A DNA stretch of 64,000 bases from Blasia pusilla (Eukaryota). Where the stretch lies: NCBI GenBank assembly GCA_050084515.1, contig CM114271.1, positions 20,708,001-20,772,000 of the forward strand. The letters are read 5' to 3'. Each line of letters begins with the position of its first letter. The first letter of the stretch is position 1. The notes beneath the pieces were generated by a model. It saw only the letters and a program-made list of their open reading frames with translations. It ran no database searches and had not been told where the DNA came from. The translations under genes and the position numbers were made by a program. This document shows, piece by piece, positions 12,901 to 64,000 of the stretch.

Positions 12901-13350
12901 GCGGCGGCGGCGGCGAAGAAGACACATATCTACAGTCGACTACACAAGGGACACATCTTCATCCCCCTGGCCATAGAGATGTATGGGGCTATGGGGAGAG
13001 GTTCGACTCATTCCTTACGGACTACGCCCATCATCTCCACTCGAGAAATGGGTTGTCCTTAGCTACTGCGATTCTGTATTGTAGGCAGCGGGTCTCCATA
13101 GTGTTGCAGCGTGCCCAGGCTAATGGGATTTTGCGGCGGGCTCAGTGTGGGAGACGCCAGGCGCTAGAGGCCCACTTAGTAGTAGTCATAGCTCTCTTCT
13201 TGTTGTTCTTTGATATTGTCTCTGCTTTGTTGGTGAGTTTCGTCGTTAGGGGGGGAATGCCCCTTCTTCCTTTTCTGGTCGTGTTGTGGCCTTCAGGTTT
13301 TGACTCTTTGAGTCCCCCTCTTTTGTACTTCCGATGGGTTTTCCATCACT
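10000..13350 (+). mobile_element. Non-LTR retrotransposon with RT and C-terminal restriction-like endonuclease (CRE-like), frameshifted; boundaries approximate
   Basis: RT motifs IRPIAIGEVLLRLV, DVENAFNS, GTRRGDP, DDTHIVG and GLAVKVGKC. These are followed by a Zn motif (DPLGVHLARC..HDA) and RLE motifs RADL..VADVVV..KK..Y..FIPLAIEMYG. No APE domain was seen. Confidence 0.85.
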
Positions 13351-34700: not shown

Positions 34701-35449
34701 AGCGGATCGGAGGGGCTGGTTGGTTGGTGACTCGTTCATTGTTGGAGAGGCTTCAAGGCAACTCGTGGTAGCTCGGGGTGAGTGGGCGTGAGAGGCGGAG
34801 TAAGGAGCAAGGAGCAAGCAAGCAAGCTTGCTTGCTTGGGGGTGAGGCAATTTTTGCAGGATTTAGGATTTGAGTTTTGCATACCTGGTCACCCATCTTT
34901 GGGCTATTCTGCCTGGAGGACGCTTAACTGCTGAGTTCTTAACTATGCCATTGTCTGCATTGTTGTAGCTCATTTGGTGCTGTTCGGAGAGGTGTTAGGC
35001 ACTTTATGCATCTCAGGTTATTGGTTGATGTACCTCTAGCGCATAGTACGGTGTAGCCTCTCCATGCAGGTGATATTTTCAGGTGCTGCGAGTTCGACTA
35101 GCACGTCATCGACCCGCGGCGGAGTAGCTATTGCGTTAGAATTGTGTGGTGGGTTTTGTGGATTCAGAGGGCACCACGTTTGGTGGATTGTGTTACCTTG
35201 ATTTCCATTTGCGATTGGAGGGTTGTCGTTGGATGTCTTGTGTTTGGATCCCCTCCATTGTGCTTCTTGCTTGCGCGCCCATTGTTAGGGTTGACGCTGA
35301 TTTCCATAGTAGTGTTACTCCTATGTGCTACTGATAGTGAGGCTGGAGTGATGACCAGTAGACCGTGGGAGTCTTCTTGTGGTGATGAGAAATTAGGTTG
35401 CCTACACCCATAGCTAGTAGAGCTACAATAGTAGAGCGACATCGACGTC

Positions 35450-41400: not shown

Positions 41401-42605
41401 TTTTGGGATAAAGCGTGCGTATAGCTTACTCCTTGGCGTATTGGTGGCGTGGCATGCATACTCAGTGCAGCGATTGGTGTCACGTTGTATGGTTTGTGAC
41501 CGGGTGAGGGCATCATTTAATGCCCCTACACCACAATTACACCCCTTGCCTATTATGGGGTTGGGTTACCGTTGGAGTGTGGACTTTTTGGGACCGTTAC
41601 CATTGGTATGCGACATCATTGATATGTGTTGGTGATGGTGGAGCACTTCTCCAAGTGGATTGAGTTGGTGGCATTACCGGACAAGGCAAGTGAGGAACGG
41701 CGTATGCGTTTTGGATAGAGTGCTTAGTCATTTTGGTGCAATGGTGAAGTCTTGACCGACCGAGTCTGAGTTTGGTGGTGAGTTTTAGGTCTTGTGTGAC
41801 AAGGCATTGATTGATCATCGGACCACGTCTCGAGATCATCGAGGCGGATGGTTTGGTGGCGTGTGGTTCAGGCGGTGAAGAGGGCATTGCGCAAGTATGG
41901 CCTCTGAAGGGCATCTTAGGAGGATATTCGGTTGCCATGGTTAGCCATGGGGTATAGGTTCAGTCGCCAAGCATCCTTGGCTTCCTTCTCACCTTATTTT
42001 CTGTTATACGGCCGTGATCCAGACTTGCCAGCAACAATTCGTCGGGAGTCTAGTGAGGTGGTGGACCTTGATGACCCAGAGATGTGGATGAGGGTGTGTT
42101 CTCAACGGGCGGAGCTCTTTCGGAGAGTTATGCCAACAGCCTTTGAGAATCTTGCCATTGCTCAACACAGGGATACGTTGCGGTATGCAACCATTCGGGG
42201 TGGGGGCTATCAACCATCGATTCGTAGGTTCCATGTGGGGGACTATGTCTATTTGCAGCAGATTGCCCCGACAACGTTGGATGTGACGGCAGCGCACTAT
42301 TTTACGAGTGCGTGAGGTATTAGCTTCTAGAGTTCTCATGTTGGAGGGTCGTGATGGAGTTGTTTGGAAGGACCATGTGCATAATTGTGCGCCATGTCAT
42401 CTTCCAAATGTGGATGGTATCTTATTGACCCAAGCTTAGCCATGATACGTGCTAGCTTGAGGTGCATGTTGTGTGGGTCTGCTTTGTGTAACGCACCCGT
42501 ATGTTGGTGTGTGATCGGTGTTCTAGGGGTTGGCACATGATGTGTTTGACTCACGTTTGGATGTTGTTCCTCTTTGGAAGGTGGGTTTGTCCTCGATATA
42601 CTTAG
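35450..42605 (+). pseudogene. gag-pol polyprotein of element A
   Basis: Gag (FQHLEGPPMDDYHEF; knuckle CWTCGGDHVRKFC), protease VLLDSGA (~37600), RT LPFGLKNAPAEFQR..YIDD (40100-40200), RNase H FQLHTDWS, integrase HHCC (HAHEELGHFG..CMVC) with core WSVDF, and a degenerate PHD at ~42463-42597. Confidence 0.9.
38325..39240 (+). pseudogene. DNMT3-like C5-cytosine DNA methyltransferase domain within the element A polyprotein
   Basis: Motif I VLDLFGGISTG, II YVERD, IV DLVIAGWPCQG, VI YILENV, VIII RAHRPRLWWTNL, IX ERERAMGF and X RHVLGEAM, in linear order. Confidence 0.9.
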
Positions 42606-44837
42606 GAGAGGTAGATGACTTGATCTTTGCATGATATGGATTACGGATGTGCGACTAACGACGGGCAACCTAGCACCGGCCTTCGATTCGGGCACCCAAG
42701 AAGGTGTATAGCATGTAGTAGATGTATAGGGCTACAGGAGTTAGAGGGACCTAACCGCCTTGATTAGGGGGCGAGTTGTGGTACACTTGCGTTTGTGGAT
42801 ACTCTCGTCTATGTTATGTATGTATGTGAGTATGGTATGTCGATGATGTATGTTGTATGGCGATGGGGATTCGCACGACAATCATCATGACCATACGGAT
42901 TATGTCGTAGAGTATAGTCTTTGGTAGAGGCCATTCCTTATGTAGGACCGTAGTGGCTTGGTAGAGATGCGGTTCCATACATAGGGTTGGGGGTTACTCA
43001 CTTGGGGTGACTTTCCCAATAGGGCCCGCTCTTAGGTTGGAGGATATAAGGTGGCTTGCCCTCAAAGAAACGATTAGTTCTTTGAGTTGAGCCTGCTTGC
43101 GTTGGGAGTTAGCCTTGGTAGTGAGTAGAGCTCTTGGCTATGGTGTTTCCCGCAAGCTTCGACCTAGATTCTCCCATCGTGGAGTGGGTTTGGCTCGATT
43201 GTATGTGATTGTAAACGTGTTTTATGACAGTAGGTCTTTCACGGATTTCAAGTTGTGGTACACTTGCGTTTGTGGATACTCTCGTCTATGTTATGTATGT
43301 ATGTGAGTATGGTATGTCAGCGATGTATGTTGTATGACGATGGGGATTCGCACGACACCCGTCATACGCGATGCTGGATGGAATCCTACAAACACGGTGA
43401 TATGGGTGCGAGAGGGGGTGCTTCTTATGAACACCTCACCTACATTGAGGGATGTTTTTAGGACCGCCAAGAATATTGAGTGCAACATGGTGGAGGAGAG
43501 CGTAGCCACCATGAGTTCTGGGCGAGATCAGTTACGATTGCCTACACCACCAGTGCAGCAACGTGGATTCCGCGATAGGTCTGTGGCACCACGAGCTCAG
43601 GGAGGATACCAGGAGGCCATGCCACAAAGACCTGCGCCTTCATATGCGGCTCAAAAGTAGCCGCCTATGATGATTTGTTGGGCATGTGGTGAAGCCCATC
43701 ATTAGCGTGATTGCACTCGTCAAGGTCATGGACGCGTGCCTCAACATGGAGGAGGAGATGGTGCTGCACTTGGAGGTTATTGGCGTGATTATTGTTAGAG
43801 GAATGGTCACACACGCGCCATGTGTTTCAGCTTATACCAGCTTATGTCCGGACCGAGGGCCAAAGAGGGCACGAAAGTGAGTTGCCGGTCCGGGTTTGCC
43901 TAGAGATCCTGCACTAGGTGGTCACGTTGGGAGACGAGGAGCTAGATTCGCTCAAGGGGGTCGTGGAGGAGGTAGAGTCCCACCATCTAGACACCTCGAG
44001 GGAGACGCCAAGCAGGAGGTTGGGATGACTGCTCAGACAGAACAACTACAACACCAGATTTCTGCTATGGCATTGAGGCTACCCAATGCCGGATCCGTGG
44101 CATCGACGTCTTATGGAGCAACCAGAAATATGGAGGATCATGGTTGGATATGCGGGGTTGCCCAAATGGAGGCCACCGCAATTGTTACGTGTGGAGCAAC
44201 CGCAGAGTTGGATCCACACGAGGGGAAGCCAGCAAGCCGACTAGGCTTCCTCAATCTTCACATTGTCTTAGGCGATGAGGACCCCATCGACGGGTCATGC
44301 TTAGAGTTCCCAGAGAGTTGGTGATACTATTGGTGTGCACACATGGAAGCGAGTGCAATGACTCCTATTGCTAATGCTCAGGAGGAGCATATGTCAAGCA
44401 CATTGTTGGGGGTGGTCACTATTGTGTACCGCGCTCCTTTATTTTCTGCTTCCGATGTTATGATGTTGGAAGGTACGCCTGCCGAGGTTTTTTGGCTGGC
44501 CGCTACGTTATGTGATCGTGGATTTGGTGTTCCTACGTCACACTCAAGGGTGATTGTAGAGGAGGTGATGTATCTGCCCTTGGAGCTTATGCTCGGGCCG
44601 TCCACGTCAGATTCATGGCAGGCTGTGGCTGCTAGGATGGCGGAGATTCCCGTTAGACCCATGATAGAATATGCCATGGCTTCTCTTGGTGTTGTGTTGC
44701 TGGATAATCGGGGAGCGGTCTTCCACTTGGTGAGTCCAGGACGTAGAGTTTTTAGTCCGCAGCGTGTCCTATTGGATTCGGGAGCGCAACCCCTGATGTT
44801 GGGGAAAGCGACATTAAAAGTTGGGCTTGACAAGAGC

Positions 44838-45480
44838 TGTCGTGCGCATACAAATTGCTGCATAACATACATCGCTGTCACCAAACACACACACAAACAT
44901 ACACAATCCCAAGCTAACTCATGACATCCAAACAACGAGACAAGAAGTACCAAAATATCTCCAATAAATCAAGATCCAATCTCTCTCAACACCATATCTC
45001 TCAAATGTGTGCACTCCCATATGTCTTTCTCAATGTCAAACCAAACCCACTCTCCTAATGAGAGGCTTGGGTTACACAGAAAAGGCAAGCAAGACCATAG
45101 CTCTGCTGCCTCATGCCAAGAGGTTCAACAATGAAAGAATGAGCTCTCAAGCTCTCTCTCCTTGAGGTATACCCCTCCCCTCTCCCAAGCTCTCTCCATG
45201 GTAACCTATGCTCCCAAGTCACCTCCTTGGCTCTTGACCTGATGTAGGAGGTCAAAGGCCACTTACCAAAAATATAAAGTCGACCATATACTCAAAAGGA
45301 TACTTACCTAAAATAATAAGTTTCTCAATATGGCTCCAAATCAACCGAAACGAAGGGGAAACATGCTCTCTCAGGTTTCCCGGGGCCTCAGCAAGTCATC
45401 ATCGACCTCGTGAGCCTGTCCTCCACTACTAGCAAAGGCGCTCTACTAGATCTCACCGATATATCCTAAAAGACGTGATA
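44838..45480 (-). mobile_element. Solo A+B terminal-repeat unit of the element B family, with 4-bp TSD GAGC
   Basis: Highly similar to 53568-54209. GAGC at 44834-44837 and 45481-45484. Host codons GLTRA|DVERC rejoin across the insertion. Confidence 0.92.
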
Positions 45481-48400
45481 GAGCCGACGTGGAGCGTTGT
45501 TCATTCCGGATATAGACATCCTTGGATGGAGCAAGTACCACACAATATATCACCCAACAGGAGGTCGTGATGAGGATTCGTTTGAGACATCCTACAGATG
45601 AGTCCGTGGTGCAAGCCAAGGCGATAGTGACCGATGTAGAGTCCTACGACGTCTTGGTTGGTGGAGCAATGTTGTACCCTATGGGATTTTCCCTATATTA
45701 CTGGAAGGAGTCAGCGTCCTACAAAAAAGGATGGTGGTCCAGTGATGGACGAATTTGTCCATTATTCGTTCGATTCATAGGTGGAGTGATCGAGCGACGG
45801 CCACTAGAGATGGCGACTTTATCAATATTTAGCAACGCCATCAGGTGGCCTTCTAATTTGATTGAGGGCATTGTCATTGCATCAGGGCATTTCCGGGCCG
45901 ATCCATGCATGAGGGCATCGTCTAATTTGATCCATGGATCGGCCGGACAATGTTGTTGGATGCGGCGAGTGTAGATTCACGAGCACATCGCCCGCGTCTT
46001 TGGTGGACAACCTTGGTGCCACATGAGGTTTTTCCGAGGGCATGCGTGAGAGTGGAGTGCCCCTCCCATTTTTTGGTGGATTCTATTATGGATCCAAGTC
46101 GTCGATCACAGGGAATACGACACGATGATCGACCTTCTTTGACTATGGTCAACAAGATTGGCATGCCACGAGCTGCCTTTCCCACATTGGTGAGTTTTCC
46201 CGCTTCCTATGCATTCAAGGAGGCCGGGCCTGGCTTGGTTTGGGATGACCAGGTATAGCGGTTGGTGGAGCCCAACGCTGATGAGCGAGAGCGAGCGATG
46301 GGATTCCCCACAGGAGTGTCGGCACTACCGTCACTATGAGAGGCATCACGACATCATGTCTTAGGTCAGGCAATGGACCTGAACTGCTTGATATGGATTT
46401 TCAACTTAGGAGTAGCTAAGCAAGGTCATTTGAGGATGCAACAGATCATACCTGTTGCGTTGGTGAGCCCAATGCCTACCGAGACGGTTGAGGGAGTGGC
46501 TGGGGGCGAGACCTCAAGAGCTCAATACACCAGGGGCATGGTTGCACAAAAATGGACAAGTCCTTCCTTAGGATGGACATGGACGGATACACCAGTTCCT
46601 TAGGAGTTATAGGAGTTTTTTTTGCATTCAGGATGTATGATTTGGGTAAGGTGAAGGGTCGAGGGATCCACATTGAGTTGTTGAGTGACACGCCGATCTT
46701 CTGGTATAGGATCCTACAGGTACAGTGTCATGGAGAGGGCTCTTATTCACAGTGGGAGCTAGGACTTGGTTGGAGCAAGACTAGTGAAGATGTTGCATGG
46801 AGAGTATGCATCTGCCACTATCATGCCCGCCAAGAAGGATGTGCATGGCAATTGGACGGATAGGCAAATGTGTGGAGATTACCGACCTATCAATCGGCAG
46901 ACAAAGTTTGATAGGTATGCCATGCCCACGCCTTAGGAGATCTTTGATGCTATTGGGCATGCAAAGGTCTTTAATTCTTTAGATCTTTGAGCGAGATACC
47001 ATCAACTGCCTATCTGATTGGAGGACATATAGAAGATGATATTTTGGGGCATCAATCCTCAAGGGAAGGATTGCTTATACTAGTGGCGGTTCTTACTATT
47101 TGGGTTAAAGAACGCCCCGTGTGAGTTTCAGAGGGTCATGGATAGGATCTTGGCAGGTCTGGATTTTGCTAGGTGTTATATATATGACATCGTAGTCTTT
47201 AGCGCCAAGGTTGAGGAGCATGAGCGACACTAGAGGAGGTATTCCGACAATTGCAGTTACATGGGTTGAAGCTACATCCAGACAAGTGCAAGTTCTTCTA
47301 TGACCAGATTGAGTACCTAGGTCATACGATATACCTAGGGGGCCTTGGTGTGCAGCTGACGAAAATAGAGGCCATTTCAAGCATTCCACGCCCTACAAAT
47401 GTGAGTCGAGTTTGAACATTCATGGGATTGGCAAACTTCTATCGACGACACGTCAAGGGTTTCAGTTTGATTGCGAAACCGCTTATCAAGGTGGATCAAG
47501 AGTGGCATTGGGGGATGAGGAGGAGAGAGCATTTTAGCTGCTCAAGGACAGATTGATATCCGCGCCCATATTGATCGAGGAAACTGATCAGAGGGCCTCC
47601 TTTCCAGTTGCATACCGATTGGAGCATGTTGGGGCTTGGAGCCATGCTCACCCAACATGATGATGATGGTAGAGAGTTCGTGGTGGCTTATGCTAGTTGC
47701 TCAAACAACGCTGCAGAGGCGAAGTATAGCTTGTATGAGGGTGAGTGCTTGGCTGTGGTCTGGGTTGTTGCACATTTCATGTGTTATCTATTCAAGAACC
47801 CCTTTACCATCATTACAGATCATCAACCACTTAAGTGGTTGATTGAGTCTGACTTAAGTGGTTGATGGAGGTTTCATCAGGGAGACTATGTCTACTTGCA
47901 AAAGATGGCATCCACGACGTTGGATGTGACTATAGGGCGCACCATCTTGAGAGTGCGTGAGATTTTTCCATCTTGTGTTCTCTTATTGGAGGGACCATGT
48001 GCATAATTGTGCGCCATGCCACCTTCCTAACATTGATGGTATAGTTGATTCGAGCTTAGCAGTAGTTCCTATAGGCTTACGATGTATGTTGTGCGGTTCC
48101 GCTTGTGGTGCAGCCACTATGATAGTTTGTGATGATTGTTCAAGAGGATGGCATATGGCATGTTTGACGCCACCTCTCACTAGGGTTCCTCAGGGACGAT
48201 GGAAGTGTCCCAGATATACATAGAGTAGGTAGTTCTAGATTCCGACTTGTGTTTGTGACATGGATGACAAGAAGGCGACCAATTATGGGTCTCGAACCCC
48301 GATGTATGGCTCAAAGTTGGATCCAAATAGGATAAAAATATTTCTAGCATGGACTCCACACTTATGGACAATCTCCATGGTAACAAACAAGGCAACCAGA

Positions 48401-50142: not shown

Positions 50143-51060
50143 GCGCCCACCACCTAGACGCGTCAAGGGAGACGCCGGGTGTGAGGCTAGGATGACTACT
50201 CAGATACATCAGCTACAAGAGCAGATTTCCGCTATGGCATTGAGATTACCCGATGCCGGATCCGTGGCATCGACATCATATGGAGCAGCCAAAGATATGG
50301 AGAATCCTAGTTGGATGTGCGGGGTTACCGTGATGGAGGCCGCGGTAGTTGTGACGCGTGGAGTAGCCGCAGAGTTGGATCCACAGTGAGGGAAAGCGAG
50401 GAAACATACTAGGCTTTCTTCAGTCTTTCACGTTGTCCGAGGCAATGAGGACCCCATCGATGGGTCTTGATCAGACTTCCTAGAGAGTTGGTGATGTTAT
50501 TGATGTGCACGCACGAAGGGCGATGGGAGAAGCGAGTGCGATGACTCCTATTGCTCATGCTCAGGAGGGGCATGTATCGAGCACGTTGTTGGGGGCGGCC
50601 ATCGTTATGCATGGAGTTTGAGTTCTTGCATCACGTTCAGAGGTGATTGCAGAGAAGATGATGGACCTGCCCTTGGAGCGGATGCTGGGGCCATCCACGT
50701 GAGATTCATGGCAAGCTGCGGCTGCTAGGATGGCAGAGATGCCCACTAGACCCGCGATAGAGCGTGCCATGGTTTCTCCTGGTGTTGTATTGCTGGATAA
50801 CCGGGGAGAGGTCTTCCAATTGGTGAGTCTCGGAGATAGAGCTTTTAGTCCGCAGCGCATCTTGTTGGAGTTAACGTCCTACATACAAGGATGGCAGTCA
50901 GATGATGGGCGCCTTATCTCATTACCCGTTCGATTCACAGGTGCAGTGGTTAAGCGACGGCCAGGAGAGATGGCGAACTTAGCAGCATTTAGCAATGCCA
51001 TCACTTGGCCTAGTGATTTGATTGAGGGACATGTCCATGCAGAGGATACTCCCGTGTGGA
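50143..51060 (+). mobile_element. Additional internal fragment (gag end/protease region) of the element B family
   Basis: QIHQLQEQISAMALRLPDAGSVASTSYGA and PGVVLLDNRGEVFQLVS match ORFs 59735-60454 and 59474-59707; internal deletions are present. Confidence 0.85.
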
Positions 51061-52647
51061 GCGAGATGTTTGCACGAAGTGCATATAAATTGGGTGGTTA
51101 ACGCAGAAATCTCACGTCAACAAAGAATTGATCGGGCAAGTCAATCGTGGTTGATCTGCTTCATTGACATGTACGATCGAGGAGAGCTTATTCACAAAAT
51201 TTCCATAGATCTCCAAAATCGAGAGGTGGAAAACTTTTTCTTTGTGCAAGGGTTACATCCACAAGAAGTTCGGGATGCCTTTAACACAACTCGACAACTT
51301 GTCCTAAAAAATCATCAAAATCCATTGATAGATAATCTTTTCTTGAGGAGACTCGAATTGATTTTTCCACATTTCTTATGGCAAGATATTCCTCAAAGGA
51401 TGGAAGGGGGCTATTCACGAATATACCATTACCCTCGTCCAATGCAACAGGAAATTTTCAACATTGAGGGATGTTGTCAACACGGGAAACATAAGACATA
51501 GCTGATGGTGAAACCAATGTTGTATTGGATAGGACTATTCCTTGTGGAGGGGAAAAACACATTATTAGAGCTAGGGAAAGAGTTGGTGAGACCTCTGAAC
51601 CGGTGTAACATATATCCGATCATGAATCATATTAGATAGAATGAGTTTGTGGTTATATCTCTGTAATATATATAAGCATGAGGTTCCTCTTAATCCACAG
51701 GTTGTTGGGTACTACCCATTTTTATAAAAAATATATATAATTTTCTTCTTGAAAGTGACTTAGTTCTACAATCTTATGGACAAATGCCACACCCCTTGAG
51801 AAAAGTTCAATGCATGTTTTTGCATGATGTTCTATGGATGGGGATTTTGAGTTGGAGGGTAATTAGGAGTTGGAAGATTAAGAGTTGAATTACCTTCAAA
51901 ATAGAAATTTCAACCTTATTGATTCCTACTATTATAGGCATTTGCTAACTTTGAAGACATGTGAATGTGAACTTGTTAGGAAAACTGTTCATGAAGTTTT
52001 CTAAGTTTTCTGTAAGGTTATCCTTGGGTAAGGTGGAAATGTGCATTTGATTAAAAAGAATTATATCTCTATTTACTATAATTAAATAATTTTGCATATT
52101 TCCAAAAAAATCAATTTATATTTTACAAGGAGATAAAATTTATTAGTTTCCTTGAATTATATTCTTAACTTTAACCTTTGTACCTTTATTAAACTGAAAA
52201 GTAGAACAAGCATAAGGATTTAATCATTAAAATATTATAAATTATTTAAAAATAAAATTTTATGAAGTACTATAATTTATTTCATATTTTGGCAAGAAAT
52301 AGTAAAAGAAAATGTGAGAGTGTGTCCAAACAAGAAATCTTCTTTAAAATTCTGAAAAATATCTACTTGAAATCTTAAACTAAATGTGTGACTGGGAAAT
52401 ATCCTTCAAAAAACATGTCCACATTTTTTTAAAACTCTTAAAGTCAAGGGCATGGTTAATTCTAATCTTATTTTTATGATTTCTTGTGCAGTTTTCCTAA
52501 CCTTTCGAGAATTTATTTAAAATTTCATATTTTCCAATATATTTTTAGTACTTTTGATGGTCTATTGATCCGTTGTAGGGGTATAGTTTCTTTCTAACTA
52601 GTCTTTATTAGGTTCTAACATTATGAAGCCTTTTAGAATTACAAATT

Positions 52648-52850
52648 TTAGGTTACAAATTTTTAACCTTCCATGTCTAAACAATTCTTTTTCAAATTTT
52701 TCAAAATTTGAAATTTATTAAGAATTGTTTAGACATTGCTACATGTATGTTGTGTAGCGATGTCTGAAAAATTCTTAATAATTTAGACCTAAGTAATATT
52801 AGGTTACAAATTTTTTACCTTCCATGTCTAAACAATTCTTTTTCAAAATT
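52648..52850. repeat. AT-rich direct duplication (~50-bp block, ~151-bp spacing)
   Basis: ttaggttacaaattttt..ccttccatgtctaaacaattctttt recurs near 52648 and 52799. Confidence 0.7.
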
Positions 52851-53099
52851 TCTTTAGTTGGAAATCATACTATTCAATATTAATTCACTACTTCTCCTTC
52901 TGTTATCCCATAAAATTATTTCAAGTAAATTAATATTCAAAACTATATTCAACCATGTATGTGCTACGTAACCTTCTAAAGTTCCTCTTGGAGAATATTA
53001 CTAATTTATCTTCTTTTGTTATCTTAAATATTTTATTTCCTTCTTAAAAGTAACAAATATTTCTTTCATAATCCTACTTTTTAAGTTCAGCTGGAAGGC

Positions 53100-53567
53100 A
53101 AAGATAATTCATAGGAAAACTCTAAGAAAAATGGAGTTGTGATGGAAAGCTCGAAACTATTTAAATGGTTTTTGCACCCGTGCGATTAGACCTTCTTCCA
53201 AAAGAAAGTTTCTCTATTTTTCATCTTGTTAAGGGATCTTATCTTGACCTGATGTTTAGGACACTTGATCCTTAAGGTGTATTTAGACTTCTTGAAAATT
53301 TTGAAGCAAAATAAAGTTGTGACCAAAATCTCAAATCTATTTCAGTGGTTTATGGACTTGAGCAATCACACCTTCTAGCAAAAGATACTCTTTCCAATTT
53401 CCATCTTGTTCAAAGAGTTCATTTTGTCTTGAAATTTGTGCCACTTGATCCTAAAGGTGAATTAGAGTTTCTGCAAAGTTTCAAGTACAATGAAGTTATA
53501 AACCAGAGTCCAAAAATCTCTAAATTTTTTTGGACCTATACGATTAAACCTTCTTGGAGAAGAGGGT
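53100..53567. repeat. Degenerate ~180-bp tandem repeat, continuing at 63817-64000 beyond element B
   Basis: Homologous anchor motifs at 53136, 53316, 53495 and 63928 (equivalent to 53675 once the insertion is removed). Confidence 0.65.
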
Positions 53568-54529
53568 TGTCGTGCGCATACACATCGCTACACAACATAC
53601 ATTGTTATCATTGAACACACACACAAACACGCACGATCCCATGCTAACTTATGGCATCCAAATAACGAGACAAGAAATACCCAAATATCTCCAATAAAGT
53701 AAGATCCAATCTCTCTCTACACAATCTCACACCATAGCTCTCAAAGGTGTGCACTCTCTCTCATGTCAAACCAAACCCACTCTCCTAATGAAAGGCTTTG
53801 GTTACACTCACAAGGCAAGGGACCATAGCTCCGCTGCCTCATGCTAAGAGGTTCAACAAATAGAGAATGAGCTCTCAAGCTCTCTCTCCTTGGGATATAT
53901 ACTCCTCCCCTCTCCCAAGCTCTCTCCATGGTAACCTATTCTTCCAAGTCACCTCCTTGGCTCTTGACCTGATGTAGGAGGTCAAGGGACACTTAACAAA
54001 AATAGAAAGTCAATCATATACTAAAAATGGTACTTACCTAAAATAGTAAGTTCCTCAATATGGCTCCAAATGAGCCAAAACAAAGGGGAAACCTGCTCTC
54101 TCAGGTTTCCCGGGGCCTCAGCAAGTCATCCTCAACCTCCTAGGCCTGTCCACCACTACTCTTGAAGACGCTTTACTAGATCTCACCGATCTATCCTAAA
54201 GGACGTGACTGCTGTCGTGCGCATACACATCGATACACAATATACACCGCTATGACTAAACACACACACAAACACGCACGATCCCATGCTAACTCATGGC
54301 ATCCAAACAACAAGACAAGAAGTACCAAAATATCTCTAATCGCCCCCCTAGCTAGTGGTTAGGTCCCTCTAACTCTAGATAGCCATCTATCCCTACCTAC
54401 CATGACATACATCTTTCGGACGCTAAGAGCAAGAAGGCCGGGTGCTCATGTGGCCCCATCGTTAGTCGTCTTCCTATCATCCATGTCAGAGAAAAAGTCG
54501 CGATCGAAACCTACCTAGTATCTCCTCTA

Positions 54530-54665
54530 TGTACATCTGGGACACATCCATCGTCCCCAAGGAACCCTAGTGAGAGGTGGCGTCAGACATGCCATATGCC
54601 AACCTCTCAAACAACCATCACAGACTAGCATCGTGGCTGCACCACGGGCAGAACCACACAACATA
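54530..54665 (-). other. PHD finger at the integrase C-terminus
   Basis: CMLC..LVCDGCLRGWHMACLTPPLTRVPWGRWMCPRC is a complete Cys4-His-Cys3 pattern. Confidence 0.92.
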
Positions 54666-57600
54666 CAACGCAAGCCTGCAGTAACTACTGCTAAGCTTGG
54701 ATCCACTATACTATCAATGTTAGGAAGGTGACATGGTGCACAATTATGCACATGGTCCTTCCATACCATACCATCGTGTCCCTCCAACAAGAGAACACCG
54801 GATGGCAAAACGTCACGCACTCTCAGGATAGTGCGCCCTGCAGTCACATCCAACGTCGTCGGTGTTGTCTGCTGCAAGTAGACATAATCTCCCTGATGAA
54901 ACCTCTGGATAGTTGGTCGATAACCACCACCCTGAATAGTCGCATACCTCAACGTATCCTGATGTTGCGCAATCGCCAAGTTCTCGAACGTCATGGGCAT
55001 CACTCTCTGAAATAACTCAGCCCTCTGAGAACATGCTCGCACCCATACATCTGGGTCATCAAGGTCCAACACCTCACCAGCATCTCGACGAATGGCCGCA
55101 GGTAAATCTGGCTCTCGGCCATAAAGTAGCAAGTACGGTGAAAAAGACGCTAAGGATGCTTGCCTGCTGAATGTGTATCCCATCGCCAACCATGACAACT
55201 AGAGGTCCCAATCTCCTAGGTGACCTCTCTGCAAGCCATACTTGCGTAAACCCCTCTTCACCGTCTCCACAACTCTCTCCACTCATCCATCCACCTCAGG
55301 ATGATCTCGCGAAGTCGTGCTGTGGTCGATCAGCGCTTGATCACACAAGGCTTGGAACTCACCCCAAAACTCGGTACCCTGGTGTGTCAACACCTCAGAC
55401 GGTGCAGCATAATGACACAACACTTTGTCAAGGAAGGCATAAGCTACTCCCTCACTCGCTTTTTCAGGCAATGCAACCAACTCGATCCACTTCAAGAAGT
55501 GCTCGACCATCACCAACACATAACGACTGTGACGCTGTGTCAAAGGCAAAGGTCCTGCAAAATCCAAACTCCATCTATACCCTAAGCCCATGATCGGTAA
55601 TGGATGCAATTGTGGAGTCGGAGCATTGAACGATGCTCGGACCCGATCACACACCATGCACCTGGAAACAAATTGTTGAACGTCAGTCTGCATGCCTCGC
55701 CACTAATACTGGATCTGGAGCAAGCTGTACGTCCGCTTCACCCCAAAGTGACCCAACTCCTCGTGGGCATGCTGCACTAGTCGTGCTCTTTGCAAAGGAT
55801 GCGGCACTACGCGTACTCTGCCATCCTCCCAAACCCTCAAAATATGTGTCCCCTCCCAACGGAACCGTCTGGCCCGCTGTAGGATCCGATCTCGCTCTCT
55901 AGCACCCACAGTGCTTGCAACGCTGCCAGTACAAAGGTACTCGAAGACTACTCCATCAGCATGAATATCTCAGCCACCTATCGTCTCCTCACTGGCCTCG
56001 GGATCCAAGGACTCTCCATTAGACCTCGCCATCGAAGTCTCCACACTCTGGCTCTCCATAGCCAACATGCCTAAATAGGCTGACGCGTGCCATCTTGGCA
56101 CCGACTCCTCATCACTCTCTCCATGCCATCGAGCTCCAGTCGCATCTCGCTGACTCGGGCATGGGTTACGACTCAACCCATCTGCATCTTGGTTGAGCGT
56201 CCTAGGTCTATGTACCACCTGAAAATCATACTCCTGCAACAATAGAGCCCATCTTGCAAGCTTCCCTGTAAGCTTGTCGGACTCCATTAACCACTTGAGT
56301 GGTTGATGATTAGTGATGATGGTAAAGGGATTGCCGAATAAGTAGCACCTGAAATGCGCGACAGCCCACACCGTAGCCAAGCACTCACCCTCATACGAGC
56401 TGTACTTTGCCTCTGCAGCGTTATTCGAGCGGCTAGCATAAGCCACCACGAACTCTCTACCCTCATCATCATGCTGGGTGAGCACCGCTCCAAGCCCCAA
56501 CATGCTTCAATCTGTGTGCAACTGGAAAGGACCCCCCCTGATCGGTCTCCTCGAGATGGGCGCAGACGTCAACCTGTCCTTGAGCAACTGAAATGCTCAT
56601 CCCCCCAGTGCCACTCGTGATCCACCTTGGTCAGCAAGGTCAGTGGCTTCGCAATCGAACTGAATCCCTTGATGTATCGCCAATAGAAGTTCGCCAATCC
56701 CATGAATGCGCGAACCCGGCTCACATCTATACGGCGTGGAATGCGTGAGATAGCCTCTACCTTCATTTTCTGAACACCAAGGCCCCCTTGGTATATCGTA
56801 TGACCCAAGTACTCAATCTGGTCGTAGAAGAACTTGCACTTGCCTGGATGTAGCTTCAGCCCATGTAATTGCAATCTTCAAAACACCTCCTATAGATGTC
56901 GCTCATGCTCCTCAACTGTGGCGCTAAAGACTACGATATCATCAATATAACACCTAGCAAAATCCATACAAGCCAAGATCCTATCCCTCACCCTCTCAAA
57001 CTCAGCCGAGGCGTTCTTTAACCCAAATGGTAAGAACCGCCACTAGTACAAACAATCCTTCCCGTGAGGATCGATGCCCCAAAATGTCGTCTTCTGCCCA
57101 TCCTCCAATCTAATAGGCAGTTGGTGGTATCCGGCTCGCAAATCCAATGAACTGAAGACCTTTGCGTGACCAATCGCATCAAAGATCTCCTCAAGGGTGG
57201 GCATGGCATACCTATTGGACTTCGTCTGTTGATTGATAGGTCGCTAATCCCCACACATCCGCCTATCAGTCCAGTTGCCATGCACATCCTTCTTGGCGGG
57301 CATGACGGTGGCAAATGCATACTCCCCATGCGACATCTCTACTAGTCCTGCTCTGACCAAGTCCTGGCTCCTACTCTGAATCAGAGCCCTCTCCATATCA
57401 CTATACTTGTAGGGTCGTCGGAAGATCGGCGTATCAGTCGACAACTCAATACGGATCCCCGGTCCCTTCAGCGTACCCAAATCCTCCATGCTAAACGCAA
57501 AGCAGCTCCTATAACTCGTGAAGAACTGATGTATCCAGCGCCGCTCTCCTCCTTTCAACTTAGGACCCATATCGGCTCCCAAGTCTCCATCGTGACTACG

Positions 57601-57959
57601 GTAGGACTCTCTGGCGCGGGTATCGGTGGTTGCTATGGTGCAACCCCGTCTTGAACAACAACGCTCGGCTGCTCTTTTGCAGCCAACTGCAAACTTTGAT
57701 CTCCTCCATATGCAGTGCCCGAAACCACGCTCGATGTTGTGGCTATCATCTCCTCGCGTACATGCAAAACATCCCAAGAAGTCCAAGGGTGTCTCTCCCA
57801 ATCTCCCCTAGTGCGTAGATCTCCTCGGGTTCGCCCCCAGCCAGTGCCTCCACCGTCTCGGTAGGCATGGGGCTCACCAACGCAACCGTTGTGATTTGTC
57901 GCGATCTCATACGACGCTGCTCAGCCACTCCCAAGCTGAGGATCCATGTCAAGCAGTTC

Positions 57960-58885
57960 AGGTCCATCGCCTGACCCAAGATATGGTGTCGTGATGCCTC
58001 TGACACTGACGGTACTGCCGTCACTCCTATGGGAAATCCCATCACTCGCTCTCTCTCATCGGAGTTGGGCTCCACTAACTGGTGAACCTGGTCATCCCAA
58101 ACCAAGCCAAGACTGGCCTCCTTTTATGCATAGGAAGCGGGAAAACTCACAAACTTGGGCAAGGCTGCCCGCGGCCTGCCTACCCTGTTGATCACAGTCA
58201 ACGGTGGTCAATCATCGTGCCTCACTGCCTGTTATGGACGACCTGGATCTAGAATGGAATCCACTAACAAATGGGAGGGGCGCTCAACTCTCGCATACGC
58301 CCTCTGTAACACTGCATGGGGCACCAATTTGGTCCACCATAGACGCGGGGGATGGGCTCTAGAACCTACACTCGCCGCATCCAAGAACACTGCTGGGTTG
58401 ATCCAAGCACGCACTTGATGAGCACTCGTCACCACCCGTGACCTGGAGTCTCCTAAGATCGGCACATTCTCCAAAATGTAGGCTGGAGAACGAGACTGGT
58501 GCTCCTGCAACTGCCGTAAGACCCTCAACATCTCCTAAAACAACCTGGACCGAGTGTCAGCCAACCCGCTGCCTCGTCCAACACTCGATTGGCCCTAACA
58601 TGGCCAACCGGAAATGACCAAATCAATGGTCCCTACCCGCTCTAAGTCCTGCGCCCCCAACAACGAAATATCCCTCGGTAGGGAACTTTGGTACCCATCA
58701 TGGACGCTTGTGCATAATAAGTCGGAAAACGAGGCGAATCGCACCACATGTCGTAGTGAGACGCGCCTTGCAACATCATCACTCTCCACATACAGGTACT
58801 GTTGTACTCGCACTCCTGCCTGCAAAACAACAGCTAACCCGGTGCTAATCCCTCCAAAGAGATCTAACACTCGAATACCCTCCCC
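57960..58885 (-). pseudogene. DNMT3-like methyltransferase domain of element B
   Basis: VLDLFGGISTG, YVESDD, DLVISGWPC*G, YILENVP, RAHPPRLWW, ERERVMGFP and RHHILGQAM. Confidence 0.9.
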
Positions 58886-61800
58886 CGGGATACACCACAC
58901 AATGGGTGTGATATCCAAGGGTGTCATCGTAGCACTCCCTGCTACCTCAGGTTCCTCAGACCTTTCACGCTCCGCTGCAAACGCTTCGCTCCACGCGGTT
59001 TGCACGTGCTCATCTGCCAATCGTCGAAGCTCCTCAGTCGAGCCCCACAACGGCACCTCTACCATAACACTCCTCTCCATAGAAATTTCAGGAATGGGAG
59101 TATCCTCTGCATGGACATGTCCCTCAATCTAAACACTAGGCCAAGTGATGGCATTGCTAAATGCTGCTAAGGTCGCCATCTCTCCTGGCCGTTGCTCGAT
59201 CACTACACATGTGAATCGAACGGGTAATGAGCTAAGGCGCCCATCACTTGACTGCCATCTCGGTCTGTAGGACGCTGACTCCTCCTAGTAATCCCAAGAA
59301 AACCCCATTGGGTATAACACTGCTCCACCAACCAAGACGTCGTAGGACTCTGCATCAGTCACTATCGCCTTGGCGCGCACCATGGACTCATCTGTAGGAT
59401 GTCCCGGGCGAATCCTCACCACAACCTCTTGTCGGGTGATATACTGTGTGGTACTCGCTCCACCCAAGGATGTCTATATCTGGAATGGACAACGCTCCAC
59501 ATCGGCTCTCGTCAAGCCCAATCCTCTGAATGACGCTTTCCCCAACATCAGGGGTTGCGCTCCTGAATCCAACAAGACGCGTTGTGGACTAAAAGCTCTA
59601 CCTCCAGGACTCACCAACTGGAAGACCTCTCCTCGGTTATCCAGCAACACAACACCAGGAGAAGCCATGGCACGCTCTATCGTGGGTCTAGCGGACATCT
59701 CCGCCATTCTAGCAGCCGCAGCCTATCATGAATCTCACGTGGACGGTCCGAGCATACGCTCCAAGGGCAAGTCCATCACCTCCTCTGCAATCACCTCTGA
59801 ACGTGATGCACGAACTCCAACTCCGCGCTCACATAGCGTCGCGGCCAGCTGAAAAGCCTCGGCGGGCGTACCCCCCAAGGTCATAACATCAGAAGTAGAA
59901 AATAAAGGAGTGCGGTACACAATGGTGGCCGCCCCCAACAATGTGCTTGACACATGCCCCTCCTGAGCATCAACAATAGGAGTTGTCGCACTCGCTTCTC
60001 CCATCGCCCTCCGTGCCTGCACACCAACAACATCATCAACTCTCAAGGAACTTTGATGAGGACCCATCGATGGGGTCCTCATCGCTTCGGACAACGTGAA
60101 AGATTGAGGAATCCTAGTCTGTTTTCTGGCTTTCCTTCGTTGTGGATCCAACTCTGCGGCGGCCTCCATGTGGGCAACCCGGCACATCCAACCAGGATCC
60201 TGCAGATCTCTGTGTGCTCCATATGATGTCGATGCCACAGATTCGGCATCGGGTAACCTCAATGCCATAGCGGCAATCTGCTCTTGTAGCTGCTGTATCT
60301 GAGCAGCCATCCCGGCCTCACGTCCGGCGTCTCCCTCGATGCGTCGAGGTGGTGGTTCTCTACCTCCTCCATGGGAGGCTCCACCACCATGTCGGAAAAC
60401 TCGAGCTCCTCGTCCTCCAACAACACCACCTTGGTGCACTATCTCTAGGCCCACCTGAACCGGCTACTCGCTTTGGTGCCCTCTCTGGCCCTCGGTCCGA
60501 ACGTAACTCACAATGTACACTGAAATACCTGGCGCGTGTATGAACATACCTTTGACAATAGTCACACTGATAACCTCATGGTGCAGCACCATCTCCTCCT
60601 CCATGCCGAGTCATACGTCCATGACCTTGACGAGTGCAATGGCGCTGATGATGGGCTCCACCACATGACCAACAAGTAATAGTAGGCGGTTGCTGTTGAG
60701 CCGCATATGAAGGCGCAGGTCTCTGTGCCACGGGCTCCCGGGAGCTCGTGGTGCCACAGTTGACCTATCTCAGAGTCCACGCTGCTGCACACGTGGTGCA
60801 GCCAATCGCAATTGCTCTCACCCAAAACCCATGGTGGCTACGCTCTCCTCCGCCATGTTGCGCTCAATGTTCTCAACGGTCCTAAAAACATCTCTCAATG
60901 TAGGGGAGGTGTTCATAAGAAGCACCCCCCCACTTTGTGGGCGCGCAGGTCAGTCGAGCATCGCGTACCATGACTGGATAGCATGAGCCTCTGTCACCCC
61001 CTGAGTGACGTTGATCAACCGGCGCAAACGAGTGTAAGCCTCACGTAAAATCTCACCCGGGTGCCTCTGGAAGTTGTGGATGCTCCGCAACTTTTCCCTC
61101 CGTACCCCTTGGTAGCTCGCCCTCAACTCAGCAAAAAACTCAACCACGGGGTTGAACTTGGGACGAACCCAACTAGACGGTGCAACTGCTCCAGTGCGAG
61201 TGACCCCTCCTAAAACATCACTAGTGGAAGAGGAAGTAGCCTCTCCTGACTCCTCCTCCTCATCTGGGAACGGCTCTGTCCATGACACATAGTGTGGGTC
61301 ATAGTAGAGTCTCCATGCCTCAATCTCCTGGGCATATCTATGGGAAAACTCATGGTAATCGTCCATGGGTGCCCCCTCTAAATGCTGGAACATACCGTTC
61401 CATGCTGTAAACGGGTTGAACTCTCTAGAGTTCCTGGCCCGTTGGGAGTCGCATGAACTCCTAAACTCTGCTATGAAATCGTGCAACTCAATCGTACCTA
61501 CTACACTTGAAAACCTACGCGGTCCTCTACCCCGGTCGTCCATCTCGTACGCCCAACTGGTAGGACCACTCACAATGTGTGGCGATGTGCTCACAAATTC
61601 CTCTACACCCTCTCCCTCATCTGATGATGACACACAAGGAGGTTGAGGTGATCCCTGAAGTGAAGACCCTCGGAACCTCACGCCACTCCGCGTAAAACCT
61701 CTAGAGCTACTCTCGGGTTCACCACCTCGCCTCTCAAAGTCCCGAACGGACGCCGTGATGATCCTCGTGCCTTTCTCATCCAATCACTCTTGCCTCGCGA

Positions 61801-64000
61801 GTAATCCTTCAATCACTCATCCCAAACATGCGGCACTCGATCTACAGTCTCCCTCCCCGAGACATGTAACGTGCGGCAATAAGCAGCGTGGTGCGGCAAA
61901 TCGACCAGGCTATCATCCCATCGATAACCTACCCTCAACTCTGGACATCCCACACACGTCTATGTCTCCTAAATCACATACATACATGATGCTCTCAGCA
62001 TCCACACACCCAATATCCCCAAATAAACTACCCAAATCCCAGAATCCCTCACACGTGCAGGGTAAAGGACCAGAATGGGTAACCTGAACACATGTCGATG
62101 TCGCTCCTCATAAACTATGAATCTCGACCCCAACTCGTTCGTGGAGACAACTCCTCCAATCAGCAAGTCATACTCCTCCCGTACTGACGTTGCTCAAAAC
62201 TCCTCGATAGACGGTGCAGTTCCAGCGGAACGGTGCGCGTTGCAGGCGGCACGGAACGGCATGGCCCTCGATGATGGGATGCGGCACTCGGCGGCATACC
62301 CTCCTCAATCAACAATAAACCCACACTCTGCTCCACAATGCCAGAGCGGCTCCGCGATCAAGACGGTGCGGTATGGCCACGAGCGGCACGGCGCGGCAAT
62401 CGACGGCGCGTTGCGGCTACGGGCGTCACGGCACGGTACCCAATCTTCGTTGAGCGGCTACCAATCACAACATAGCAGCAGGAAATCAAAACTCAAACAC
62501 TATAACATGAGGTCATATGCCATCACAGGTTGATGACGGTGGCGGCCAAAACAAAGTTCGTGATGGCCACGCAAGTCCGAGAATCAACGAACGTTGTGGA
62601 AGACCCTCCACTCCGTAACGGTGGCAATAGCAACCAAGGGTGGAAAACGGAAGGTGGACCATTGACGGTGACGGTTGACCGTTGATGGTGACGGACCAAT
62701 GGTGACAGTGACGGTTGACCGTCGAAGGTGAAATTTTACCGTTGACGGTTGACAATGACTATGACGGCGACGGACGCCGCCGGTGTGGCGGCTGGTTTAG
62801 GGTTTGCACAATTTAACCCTAAAAATTTCCTAGCAATGGCAGTATTGCACAGCGTGCACAGCTTCACGATCTATGCCAGCATTAAAAAATATTTGGAATC
62901 GGACATTCCAGTAAAAACTGACAGGGATTGTTGTAAAGCCCAATGTCTCTTTCTTCTACCCAACATTCGGCAGCGCTTCCGCGCTGATTCCTCCCAAAAT
63001 AATTGTAAAACCTATAAAAATGCAAATCAGCAAGCGACATGGTGCTCCCGAAAGCACCGGCATGGGGCAACCCGCCCCCATACTCAATCCCTATCAGAAA
63101 TTGGGCAGCGCTTCCGCGCGCCACTCTTTCACACGAAAAATCGGCAAATGCAACGAAAAATCCAAGCAACCCTTGCTCCGATGAGCACTCCCATGAGCCG
63201 TTGAATGGGGAACACGGTCCCCAACCTACAAAAACAACGAGTGACCAGCGAGCTCCTCCATGAACCTCTCTCACTCTCTCATTCTCGCATTCTCTCTTTA
63301 TAAAGTAAGATTCAATCTCTCTCTACACAATCTCACACCATAGCTCTCAAAGGTGTGCACTCTCTCTCATGTCAAACCAAACCCACTCTCCTAATGAAAG
63401 GCTTGGGTTACACTCACAAGGCAAGGGACCATAGCTCCGCCGCCTCATGCCAAGAGGTTCAACAAAGAGAGAATGAGCTCTCAAGCTCTCTCTCCTTGGG
63501 ATATATACTCCTCCCCTCTCCCAAGCTCTCTCCATGGTAACCTATTCTTCCAAGTCACCTCTTTGGCTCTTGACCTGATGTAGGAGGTCAAGGGCCACTT
63601 ACCAAAAATAGAAAGTCGATCATATACTCAAAATGGTACTTACCTAAAATGGTAAGTTCCTCAATATGGTTCCAAATGAGCCAAAACGAAAGGGAAACCT
63701 ACTCTCTCAGGTTTCCCGGGGCCTCAGCAAGTCATCCTCGACCTCCTAGGCCTGTCCTCCACTACTCTTGAAGAGGCTCTACTAGATCTCATCGATCTAT
63801 CCTAAAGGACGTGATAGGGTCTTTTCAGTTTACATCTTGTTCAAAGACCTCATCTTGATCTTAAATTAAGGAAACTTGCTCCTCAAGCTGTATCTAGAGT
63901 TATAAGAAATTTTTAAGAAAAAATGGAGTTGTGATCAAAAGCCCAAAAATATTTAAATGATTTTGCAAACCTACGCAATCAAACCTTGTAGAAAAAGAGA

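Follow-up and report, generated by a model that had tools for sequence, protein, structure and literature searches.

A C-terminal PHD finger on the integrase of DNMT3-bearing Gypsy retrotransposons in Blasia pusilla

A stretch of 64,000 nucleotides from Blasia pusilla (assembly GCA_050084515.1, contig CM114271.1, positions 20,708,001 to 20,772,000 of the forward strand; the whole stretch is referred to as the window) contains three copies of a Gypsy-type retrotransposon, named elements A, B and C. The polyprotein of this family ends in a PHD finger, which directly follows the integrase, and we regard it as practically certain that this is a real PHD finger carried on the integrase. Judged by its sequence, the same polyprotein also includes a DNMT3-type DNA methyltransferase, and the two domains are linked throughout one clade of Gypsy elements. 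The finger may serve to tether integration to chromatin, and it is towards this role that we incline.

The PHD finger and integrase of element C

The minus-strand interval 54527-55198 of element C is an open reading frame (ORF) of 223 residues, the translation of which ends in CMLCGSARGAATMLVCDGCLRGWHMACLTPPLTRVPWGRWMCPRCT followed by the stop codon TAG. The zinc ligands are spaced C-x2-C-x11-C-x2-C-x4-H-x2-C-x14-C-x2-C, which is the C4HC3 pattern of PHD fingers, and a single Thr separates the last Cys from the stop at 54527-54529. The Pfam family PF00628 was matched by residues 178-222 (nucleotides 54533-54667) with E=2.2e-10 and 40.9 bits, and by the finger of element B with 40.2 bits, both being above the curated Pfam cut-off of 24 bits. 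Weaker Pfam matches on the finger were to PF23011 and PF13832. RNase H lies upstream of the integrase and the integrase upstream of the PHD finger in one reading frame, the whole block covering 56596-54533 on the minus strand. Since the H2C2 zinc-binding region and the rve catalytic core of the integrase are in frame upstream of the finger, the PHD finger is the last domain of the polyprotein.

The structure of the C-terminal region was modelled with AlphaFold2 (AF2) on a 28-row alignment. The model placed an SH3-like beta-barrel of the integrase directly N-terminal to the finger, and confidence over the finger was high, with predicted local distance difference test (pLDDT) values of 82-92. 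Foldseek superimposed the finger on those of DPF2/3, ATXR5, BAZ2A/B, MOZ and UHRF1 with a root-mean-square deviation (rmsd) of 0.7-1.7 A (over 47-51 columns for DPF2/3, ATXR5 and BAZ2A/B), from which the cross-brace PHD fold is predicted to be present. For the whole model, the best Foldseek matches were proteins in which a barrel is followed by a PHD finger, namely PHF1/MTF2 (Tudor-PHD) and UHRF1 (TTD-PHD), at low template-modelling score.

No chromodomain was matched by Pfam in any of the 263 stop-to-stop frames of at least 70 residues that were scanned in the window, nor in the 18 relatives scanned, and a chromodomain elsewhere in the element was rejected on this result. A conserved NCAPCH motif before the finger was considered as an additional zinc knuckle and rejected; one Cys alone is invariant in the 28-row alignment, and the relative P0016 has no other Cys in the motif.

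The finger is intact only in element C. In element B the codon of the eighth zinc ligand is TAT, so that Tyr replaces Cys, and the integrase has been deleted; RNase H, which extends to 47853, almost abuts the PHD region, and tblastn alignments with P0016 skip from residue 890 to residue 1391 of that protein. In element A only a remnant survives. In all three copies the finger occupies the same position and shares the reading frame of the integrase. An earlier note, made from the letters of the window alone, had described a C4HC3 PHD at the end of the polyprotein, at the C-terminal site of the integrase where chromoviruses carry a chromodomain, and had suggested a search with PF00628. Element C agrees with this description, the site is the one described, and the search gave the scores above the cut-off in elements C and B that are reported above. 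The finger of element A is degenerate, as the note had stated, with a frameshift and a stop inside it and Tyr at the eighth ligand; that of element B, which had been called intact, is not, as its sequence ends in CPRYT and a stop.

Structure and decay of the three copies

The copies were delimited by comparison of the window with itself by blastn and by tblastn with intact relatives, and the coordinates of all features are collected in Table 1. Elements A and C do not have two equal long terminal repeats (LTRs). In both, the repeats are split and follow the order A1, internal region, B1, 4-bp spacer, A2, B2. The A1 and A2 repeats of element C match at 495 of 515 positions (20 differences), and its B1 and B2 repeats are 89% identical across 128 bp. 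Both split-repeat elements are nonetheless flanked by 4-bp target duplications and belong to a family with a DDE integrase. The duplication is GGGT in element C and a decayed CCGG/CCCG in element A; together with the GAGC duplication at a solo repeat unit, these indicate insertion mediated by integrase.

All three elements are dead relics. The 689 codons of element C that run from RNase H to the PHD finger can be read through without a frameshift but are interrupted by five premature stops, and in the integrase of this element His stands in place of the second catalytic Asp (THQGTEF, where relatives have DQG).

Table 1. Features of the retrotransposon family in the window
Feature	Position	Strand	Basis or remark
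Element A, whole	33715-43357	+	About 75% identical to element C; nested in element B
Element B	32244-48289	+	79-83% identical to element C (self-blastn); interrupted by element A and a solo 641-bp repeat unit
Element C, whole, nearly full length	53568-63816	-	Self-comparison, repeats, flanks
Solo repeat unit (A + B parts, 641 bp) in element B	44838-45480	-	4-bp duplication GAGC
Further family fragment	50146-51053		Self-comparison / tblastn
Split direct repeats, element A	A1 33717-34076; B1 42774-42880; 4-bp spacer; A2 42885-43250; B2 43251-43357
Split direct repeats, element C	A1 63300-63814; B1 54213-54340; 4-bp spacer; A2 53694-54208; B2 53568-53695
PHD finger (C4HC3), element C	54533-54667	-	Translation, Pfam PF00628, AF2, Foldseek
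Integrase beta-barrel (SH3-like) C-terminal domain, element C	54734-54886	-	AF2 strands at residues 105-155 of the 223-residue ORF
Integrase rve catalytic core, element C	55298-55579	-	Pfam PF00665, frame of the PHD finger
Integrase H2C2 zinc-binding region, element C	55634-55792	-	Pfam PF17921, frame of the PHD finger
RNase H, element C	56228-56506	-	Pfam PF17917/PF17919; tblastn with relative P0016
Reverse transcriptase, element C	56593-57543	-	Pfam PF17917/PF17919; tblastn with relative P0016
Predicted DNMT3-type methyltransferase, element C, upstream of reverse transcriptase	57917-58939	-	tblastn with relatives P0016 and P0044
PHD finger, element B	48083-48220	+	Pfam PF00628, E=3.4e-10; ends CPRYT, then stop
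PHD remnant, element A	42463-42602	+	Frameshift and stop between second and third ligand pairs; Tyr at eighth ligand
Predicted DNMT3-type methyltransferase, element A	38322-39270	+	Pfam PF00145, E=5.1e-10; tblastn

Tandem Repeats Finder detected nothing relevant around element C. The sequences on its two sides, 53389-53532 and 63820-63965, are 74% identical over ∼145 bp, a match whose length and divergence both exceed what a target duplication would show, and element C may have landed in repeated sequence. GC skew in the window is strand-specific, lying between +0.18 and +0.29 over elements A and B (32000-44000) and between -0.13 and -0.23 over element C (52000-64000); these signs indicate that the sense strand of the family contains far more G than C.

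The DNMT3-type methyltransferase

The polyprotein is arranged in the order gag, a region resembling the upstream Pol of relatives, DNMT3-type methyltransferase, reverse transcriptase (RT), RNase H, integrase and PHD finger. The N-terminal part of the methyltransferase of element A, with the catalytic motifs, forms one open frame, in which FGG, PCQ, ENV and RxR could be aligned. Its best matches among solved structures were DNMT3A, 3B and 3C (E=1.3e-12), ahead of plant DRM2 and bacterial enzymes. In element C the motifs FGGISTG, PC and ENV are recognisable among five in-frame stops, and the domain was also found by tblastn in element B. These matches identify the methyltransferase as a genuine domain of the elements. 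In an element of the window type it is ∼1,300 residues from the PHD finger, the two lying at opposite ends of Pol.

Distribution of the finger and the methyltransferase among relatives

A protein search with the last 223 residues of element C matched 39 longer proteins, of which the best named matches were gene models of Marchantia polymorpha (77-79% identity) and proteins of Calypogeia fissa. A complete transcript ORF of Coleochaete scutata, encoding RT, RNase H, integrase and PHD, was 64% identical. A second search used the integrase-PHD part of this Coleochaete protein; PF00628 was matched in 117 of the 120 relatives listed, among which Haematococcus, Volvox, Pleodorina, Tetrabaena and Chromochloris were named. 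In an alignment of 28 sequences (35-78% identity), none of the eight zinc ligands varies, and M190, D194, G199, P213 and W217 are likewise invariant or nearly so. When the query was taken together with the matches of the first search and of one further search, a complete C4HC3 pattern was present in 34 of 43 proteins, the remainder being truncated or decayed. The core of the finger is M-[LIV]-[LV]-C-D-x-C-x-x-G-W-H-x-x-C-L-x-P-P-L ... P-x-G-x-W-x-C. On these alignments the PHD finger is a family-wide trait and not a chance match, and the family is seen to span liverworts, charophytes and chlorophyte algae.

One of the Marchantia polymorpha gene models, Mp_7g09570, is annotated as a 'PHD-type domain' gene. 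It consists of the start of a DNMT, 68% identical to that of element A, joined to an integrase C-terminus and a PHD finger, a composition by which it is recognised as a chimeric relic of the retrotransposon family annotated as a gene. The case matters for genome annotation, where such relics are called as host genes with a 'PHD-type domain'.

Two architectures were found in intact metagenomic polyproteins. In one the DNMT precedes RT, as in the window and in P0016 and P0044, the latter having 2811 residues with the PHD finger at the very end. In the other, which is that of most metagenomic relatives (P0042, P0043, P0033, P0041 and P0047 among them), the DNMT is placed after RNase H and before integrase, and the protein continues for 300-360 residues beyond the PHD finger. 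The 150 best representatives matched with the Coleochaete protein were sorted by a custom DNMT profile and by a search for the ligand pattern. A DNMT match was obtained in 59, located before RT in eight and before the integrase in 47, with four partial matches. Where at least 230 residues followed the integrase core, the finger was present in 49 of 52 DNMT-bearing representatives and in 16 of 62 without a DNMT match, many of which begin just before RT and may have had a DNMT upstream.

An integrase tree of 143 rows was calculated with FastTree after the PHD columns had been left out. All 73 rows with a PHD finger after the integrase, and all DNMT-bearing rows, fell into one clade of 83 rows (Shimodaira-Hasegawa (SH)-like support 98), and neither a post-integrase PHD finger nor a DNMT match was found in the 60 rows outside it. 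An IQ-TREE analysis of 54 of the 143 rows placed the 33 chosen rows with a post-integrase PHD finger on one side of a branch (SH-like approximate likelihood ratio test, SH-aLRT, 99). Representatives with the DNMT before RT are dispersed over the integrase tree, a pattern suggestive of either moves or repeated capture of the DNMT. A PHD finger of this kind also occurs in the lineages that neighbour the clade, where it is placed after RNase H and before integrase (P0198, P0200, P0204 and P0213 by ligand pattern; P0213 and P0230 by Pfam), and the custom DNMT profile found no match in P0198, P0200, P0204, P0213 or P0230.

Transcription of related copies

Three raw RNA-seq runs were compared with element C at an identity of at least 90%, with 6-12% of each run being read. 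The numbers of matching reads were 3885, 3902 and 4016, and these covered all 30 bins of the element. Approximately 87% of the matching reads were 90-95% identical to element C, and 18-25 per run were at least 99% identical. In the bin of the PHD finger (54594-54935), the depth of first mates on the plus and minus strands was 117.5 against 7.2, 118.3 against 3.1 and 91.5 against 5.4 in the three runs; the predominance of plus-strand first mates corresponds to minus-strand, that is sense, RNA if the libraries were of the usual stranded kind. Reads carry sense codons at two or more of the five premature stops of element C, being Trp at 56507-56509 in 65 of 65 reads and Leu at 55283-55285 in 42 of 42 reads of run X22. 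The identity of 90-95% and the sense codons at these stops indicate that copies related to element C, rather than element C itself, are transcribed, the PHD-coding part included. The family therefore appears to be alive, with related copies transcribed in sense.

Kind of PHD finger and its likely ligand

Sequence identity of the finger to bona fide histone-tail-binding PHD fingers of solved structure is 38-48%. Among the 60 solved relatives listed, the best were CHD4, PHF12, KDM5A/B PHD1, Lid PHD1, KAT6A, DPF2/3, PHF21A, ATXR5, AIRE, BAZ2A/B and UHRF1; CHD5, KDM5D PHD1, KAT6B, KMT2C/D, WSTF, UHRF2, ORC1b, EHD3, RCO1 and Cph2 were also in this list, and no known H3K4me3 reader, such as ING, BPTF or TAF3, was in it. 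Most of these nearest PHD fingers read unmodified H3K4 or the free N-terminus of H3. Among the Foldseek matches, entries whose titles describe a complex with an unmodified H3 tail (BAZ2A, UHRF1 and ATXR5) superimposed with an rmsd of 1.0-1.5 A. ING and BPTF, which read trimethylated Lys4, have a cage Trp two residues before the His ligand; in 138 of 146 distinct fingers of the family Gly occupies this position, and the Trp of the H3K4me3 readers is lacking there. These resemblances point to the unmodified H3 tail, with H3K4 unmethylated, as the mark that might be read, an assignment which is offered tentatively and which is rather more likely to fail than to hold.

Other features of the window

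Three frames at 1-1429 on the minus strand match the Pfam peroxidase family PF00141 (E=1e-13 to 2e-20) and resemble exons of a haem peroxidase gene of plant type that continues beyond the start of the window. A fragment of a PIF1-like helicase at 17614-17913 on the plus strand (PF05970, E=5e-8) may be the remnant of a Helitron. A different, decayed Gypsy-type element with RT and aspartyl protease fragments occupies 13576-15208 on the minus strand, and its RT is ∼29% identical to that of the DNMT-bearing family. Long open frames lacking a convincing Pfam family are located at 11113-13541 on the plus strand (three successive frames of 314, 276 and 243 residues) and at 21347-22597 on the minus strand (417 residues); the DNA of the first group is rich in G+C (51-55%) and shows a strong AT skew.

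Proposed role of the finger

By sequence class and by analogy with chromoviruses, the role that we consider somewhat the best supported is that the finger tethers integration to chromatin. The PHD finger would bind the N-terminal tail of histone H3, probably with Lys4 unmethylated, and this binding would tether the complex of integrase and cDNA to nucleosomes away from active promoters, the finger thus doing the job that the chromodomain does in chromoviruses. All three components are our inference: that the finger binds histones, that it prefers unmethylated Lys4, and that it has any influence on insertion sites. Tethering is favoured because the position after the SH3-like domain is the site of the reader in chromoviruses, because of the class of the nearest PHD fingers, because the finger is strictly conserved, and because insertions of the algal element Gypsy-7a_cRei, described below, are biased.

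Several points weigh against this role. The copies in the window are dead, and nothing in the window therefore shows function. The earlier note had taken the dense self-nesting as a sign of steering, a claim that does not survive: the interval 32244-63816 measures 31.6 kb, of which ∼27 kb (∼86%) is family DNA as summed from the self-comparison, random insertion into such DNA would mostly hit a relative, and nesting is expected by chance because family DNA is locally so dense. Nesting was accordingly rejected as evidence of targeting, being explained by that density. The linkage of PHD finger and DNMT is confined to one clade and represents a single shared inheritance, not repeated co-evolution, so that the linkage alone is no proof of functional coupling. 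The AF2 model is moderate overall, with a mean pLDDT of 74.9 and a predicted template-modelling score (pTM) of 0.40. BHC80, AIRE and CHD4, which read unmethylated H3K4, have acidic residues before the first Cys that contact the Lys4 amine. A stretch rich in D/E is present before the first Cys in those more distant relatives whose DNMT follows RNase H and precedes integrase; the window subfamily has Gly-Leu-Arg, or more fully A-G-L-R/K, at this place, which is not acidic, and ligand specificity may consequently differ from the predicted one or vary within the family. Finally, the PHD-like C-terminal cross-brace finger of the piggyBac transposase is described as binding DNA, not histones.

The last two points would suit a finger that reads no histones and binds instead DNA, such as the ends of the element as in piggyBac, or a host protein, with a function in nuclear import, in multimerisation or of a SUMO/ubiquitin type. 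Cross-brace zinc fingers are versatile, and the stretch before the first Cys in the window subfamily is basic. The identity of 38-48% and the rmsd of 0.7-1.7 A to bona fide histone-tail-binding fingers, and a conserved core common to the fingers of KDM5, CHD4 and DPF, run counter to this view, and we consider it unlikely. A finger that does not work at all, being a chance pattern of cysteines or part of a PHD gene of the host that happens to adjoin a dead element, would be in keeping with the state of the window, in which all three copies are pseudogenes and two of the three fingers are damaged. Against it stand the frame shared with the integrase in all three copies, the invariant zinc ligands, the Pfam match and the occurrence of the finger at this site in 117 of the 120 relatives listed, which come from several green lineages and include the complete Coleochaete transcript ORF; this explanation was rejected as refuted and is scarcely credible.

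A further alternative is that the PHD finger serves the element's own DNMT, by reading unmethylated H3K4 on a new copy and recruiting or licensing the DNMT3-type domain there, with self-methylation as the outcome in the manner of an ADD domain. The co-occurrence of the two domains (49 of 52 DNMT-bearing representatives against 16 of 62 without a DNMT match) is what would be expected, and every DNMT-bearing row lies inside the clade that holds every row with a post-integrase PHD finger. A single DNMT-integrase-PHD protein is conceivable in the 47 of 150 representatives in which the DNMT directly precedes the integrase, and de Mendoza and colleagues are said to have proposed, in 2018, self-methylation of retrotranscribed DNA. 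The co-occurrence is, as noted, one shared inheritance; in the window type the DNMT lies before RT, and protease cleavage would normally part it from the distant finger. The lineages outside the clade that keep the same kind of PHD finger, with no DNMT detectable by the custom profile, indicate that the finger can persist without a detectable DNMT. Guidance of the DNMT is thus improbable as the main role of the finger, to much the same degree as binding to DNA or a host protein; it is compatible with tethering of integration, and both roles could be held at once.

A more far-reaching possibility, which we regard as doubtful, combines these roles. One Gypsy clade, found from chlorophyte algae to liverworts, would have kept two things throughout its history, namely an integrase with a histone reader and, in either of two positions, a DNMT3-type enzyme. 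Where the DNMT directly precedes the integrase, one DNMT-integrase-PHD protein would insert the element into chromatin with unmethylated H3K4 and methylate the new copy on the spot, a reinvention by a mobile element of the ADD-plus-catalytic logic of animal DNMT3, in a family that may still be transcribed in a land plant.

If the finger does steer integration, the family would be the PHD counterpart of the chromoviruses, and would provide a second, independent natural system in which an integrase is tethered to a histone mark. The DNMT3-type enzyme predicted in the same polyprotein makes a compact pair of reader and writer, in which the shaping by mobile elements of their own epigenetic state could be tested. 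The presence of the family in liverworts extends methyltransferase-carrying retrotransposons into land plants. Published chromatin maps exist for this lineage.

Comparison with known systems

Chromoviruses such as MAGGY and Tf1 resemble the window family in having a small histone-reading domain after the SH3-like domain of the integrase, with presumed tethering to a chromatin state. The reader is a chromodomain in the chromoviruses and a PHD finger here, and the mark is H3K9me in the former, whereas the N-terminus of H3 is predicted for the latter. The readers of the unmodified H3 tail (KDM5A/B PHD1, CHD4 PHD2, PHF21A/BHC80, AIRE, ATXR5, BAZ2A/B, UHRF1 and the second finger of DPF/MOZ) gave the best sequence and fold matches to the finger, and share with it the core motif and the lack of Trp two residues before the His; they differ from the window subfamily, which lacks acidic residues before the first Cys.

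Animal DNMT3A/3B/3L combine a DNMT3-type catalytic domain with the ADD domain, which reads unmethylated H3K4. The earlier note had placed a methylation writer in the same polyprotein as the finger, as was found (PF00145 with E=5.1e-10 and DNMT3A/B/C as best matches in element A, and the domain again in B and C), and had drawn the comparison with ADD. This comparison holds as an analogy of reader and writer logic, and fails as an identity of domains. The Pfam profile ADD_DNMT3, which describes a GATA-like finger plus an atypical PHD, has no match on the window finger, and the finger was for this reason rejected as a captured ADD domain; it is a plain PHD, and ∼1,300 residues separate the reader at one end of Pol from the writer at the other.

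A pairing of chromatin reader and DNA methyltransferase on an LTR retrotransposon is also described for the EpiLTRs of Cymbomonas and Euglena, which carry a chromodomain, an adenine methyltransferase and a DNMT4-related DNMT, and whose acquisition is, according to their authors, distinct from that of Gypsy-DNMT3 (bioRxiv 10.64898/2026.05.21.726589). Gypsy-7a_cRei of Chlamydomonas reinhardtii is, like the window family, a green-lineage Gypsy element with a PHD finger. Its Gag-Pol is given in the figure legend with the order RT, RH (RNase H), PHD, INT (integrase), and intergenic sites were 2.6 times more frequent among its 86 new insertions than chance would predict, from which its authors suspect targeting (Craig et al. 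2022, PMC9940879). The PHD finger precedes INT in Gypsy-7a_cRei and follows the integrase in the window family; that element is active and its published text reports no DNMT, whereas the copies in the window have a DNMT and are dead. Its domain order is that of the lineages just outside the clade of the window family.

As far as the text of these sources goes, PHD fingers in retrotransposons, PHD fingers in green-algal Gypsy elements, DNMT3 in streptophyte Gypsy elements with DIRS-like repeats, and LTR elements that combine a reader with a methyltransferase are already published. The earlier note was thus right to caution that the PHD finger alone may not be new, since green-algal transposable elements with a PHD finger, Gypsy elements among them, are on record in these texts; the PHD-bearing Gypsy elements of lycophytes that it mentioned were not found in a literature search by title. 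The literature search found no report of a C-terminal integrase PHD finger in the DNMT3-bearing family, the finger possibly being shown in supplementary figures that lay outside the search, and neither the clade-wide linkage of PHD finger and DNMT nor the family in liverworts was found in it. In one review, land plants are stated to have no methyltransferase-encoding transposons (PMC6338049).

The closest known system is KnitGypsy-Dnmt3 of Klebsormidium nitens, which is described as having repeats as in DIRS and domains as in Gypsy (de Mendoza et al. 2018, PMC5890265). The word 'PHD' is absent from the text and the three supplements of that paper, figures aside, and no protein of Klebsormidium nitens was present by name among the matches of the protein searches. 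The hosts differ, being an alga for KnitGypsy-Dnmt3, while the best named matches of the window elements are in the liverworts Marchantia polymorpha and Calypogeia fissa. The window elements share with it the Gypsy Pol order of RT, RNase H and integrase (by Pfam and tblastn), and, according to the published text, an intron-less DNMT3-related methyltransferase within the Pol frame and DIRS-like split direct repeats, which are present in elements A and C. By Pol order, DNMT3-type domain and DIRS-like repeats, and with the Klebsormidium element compared through its published description, the elements of the window belong with the 'Gypsy-DNMT3' elements of streptophytes.

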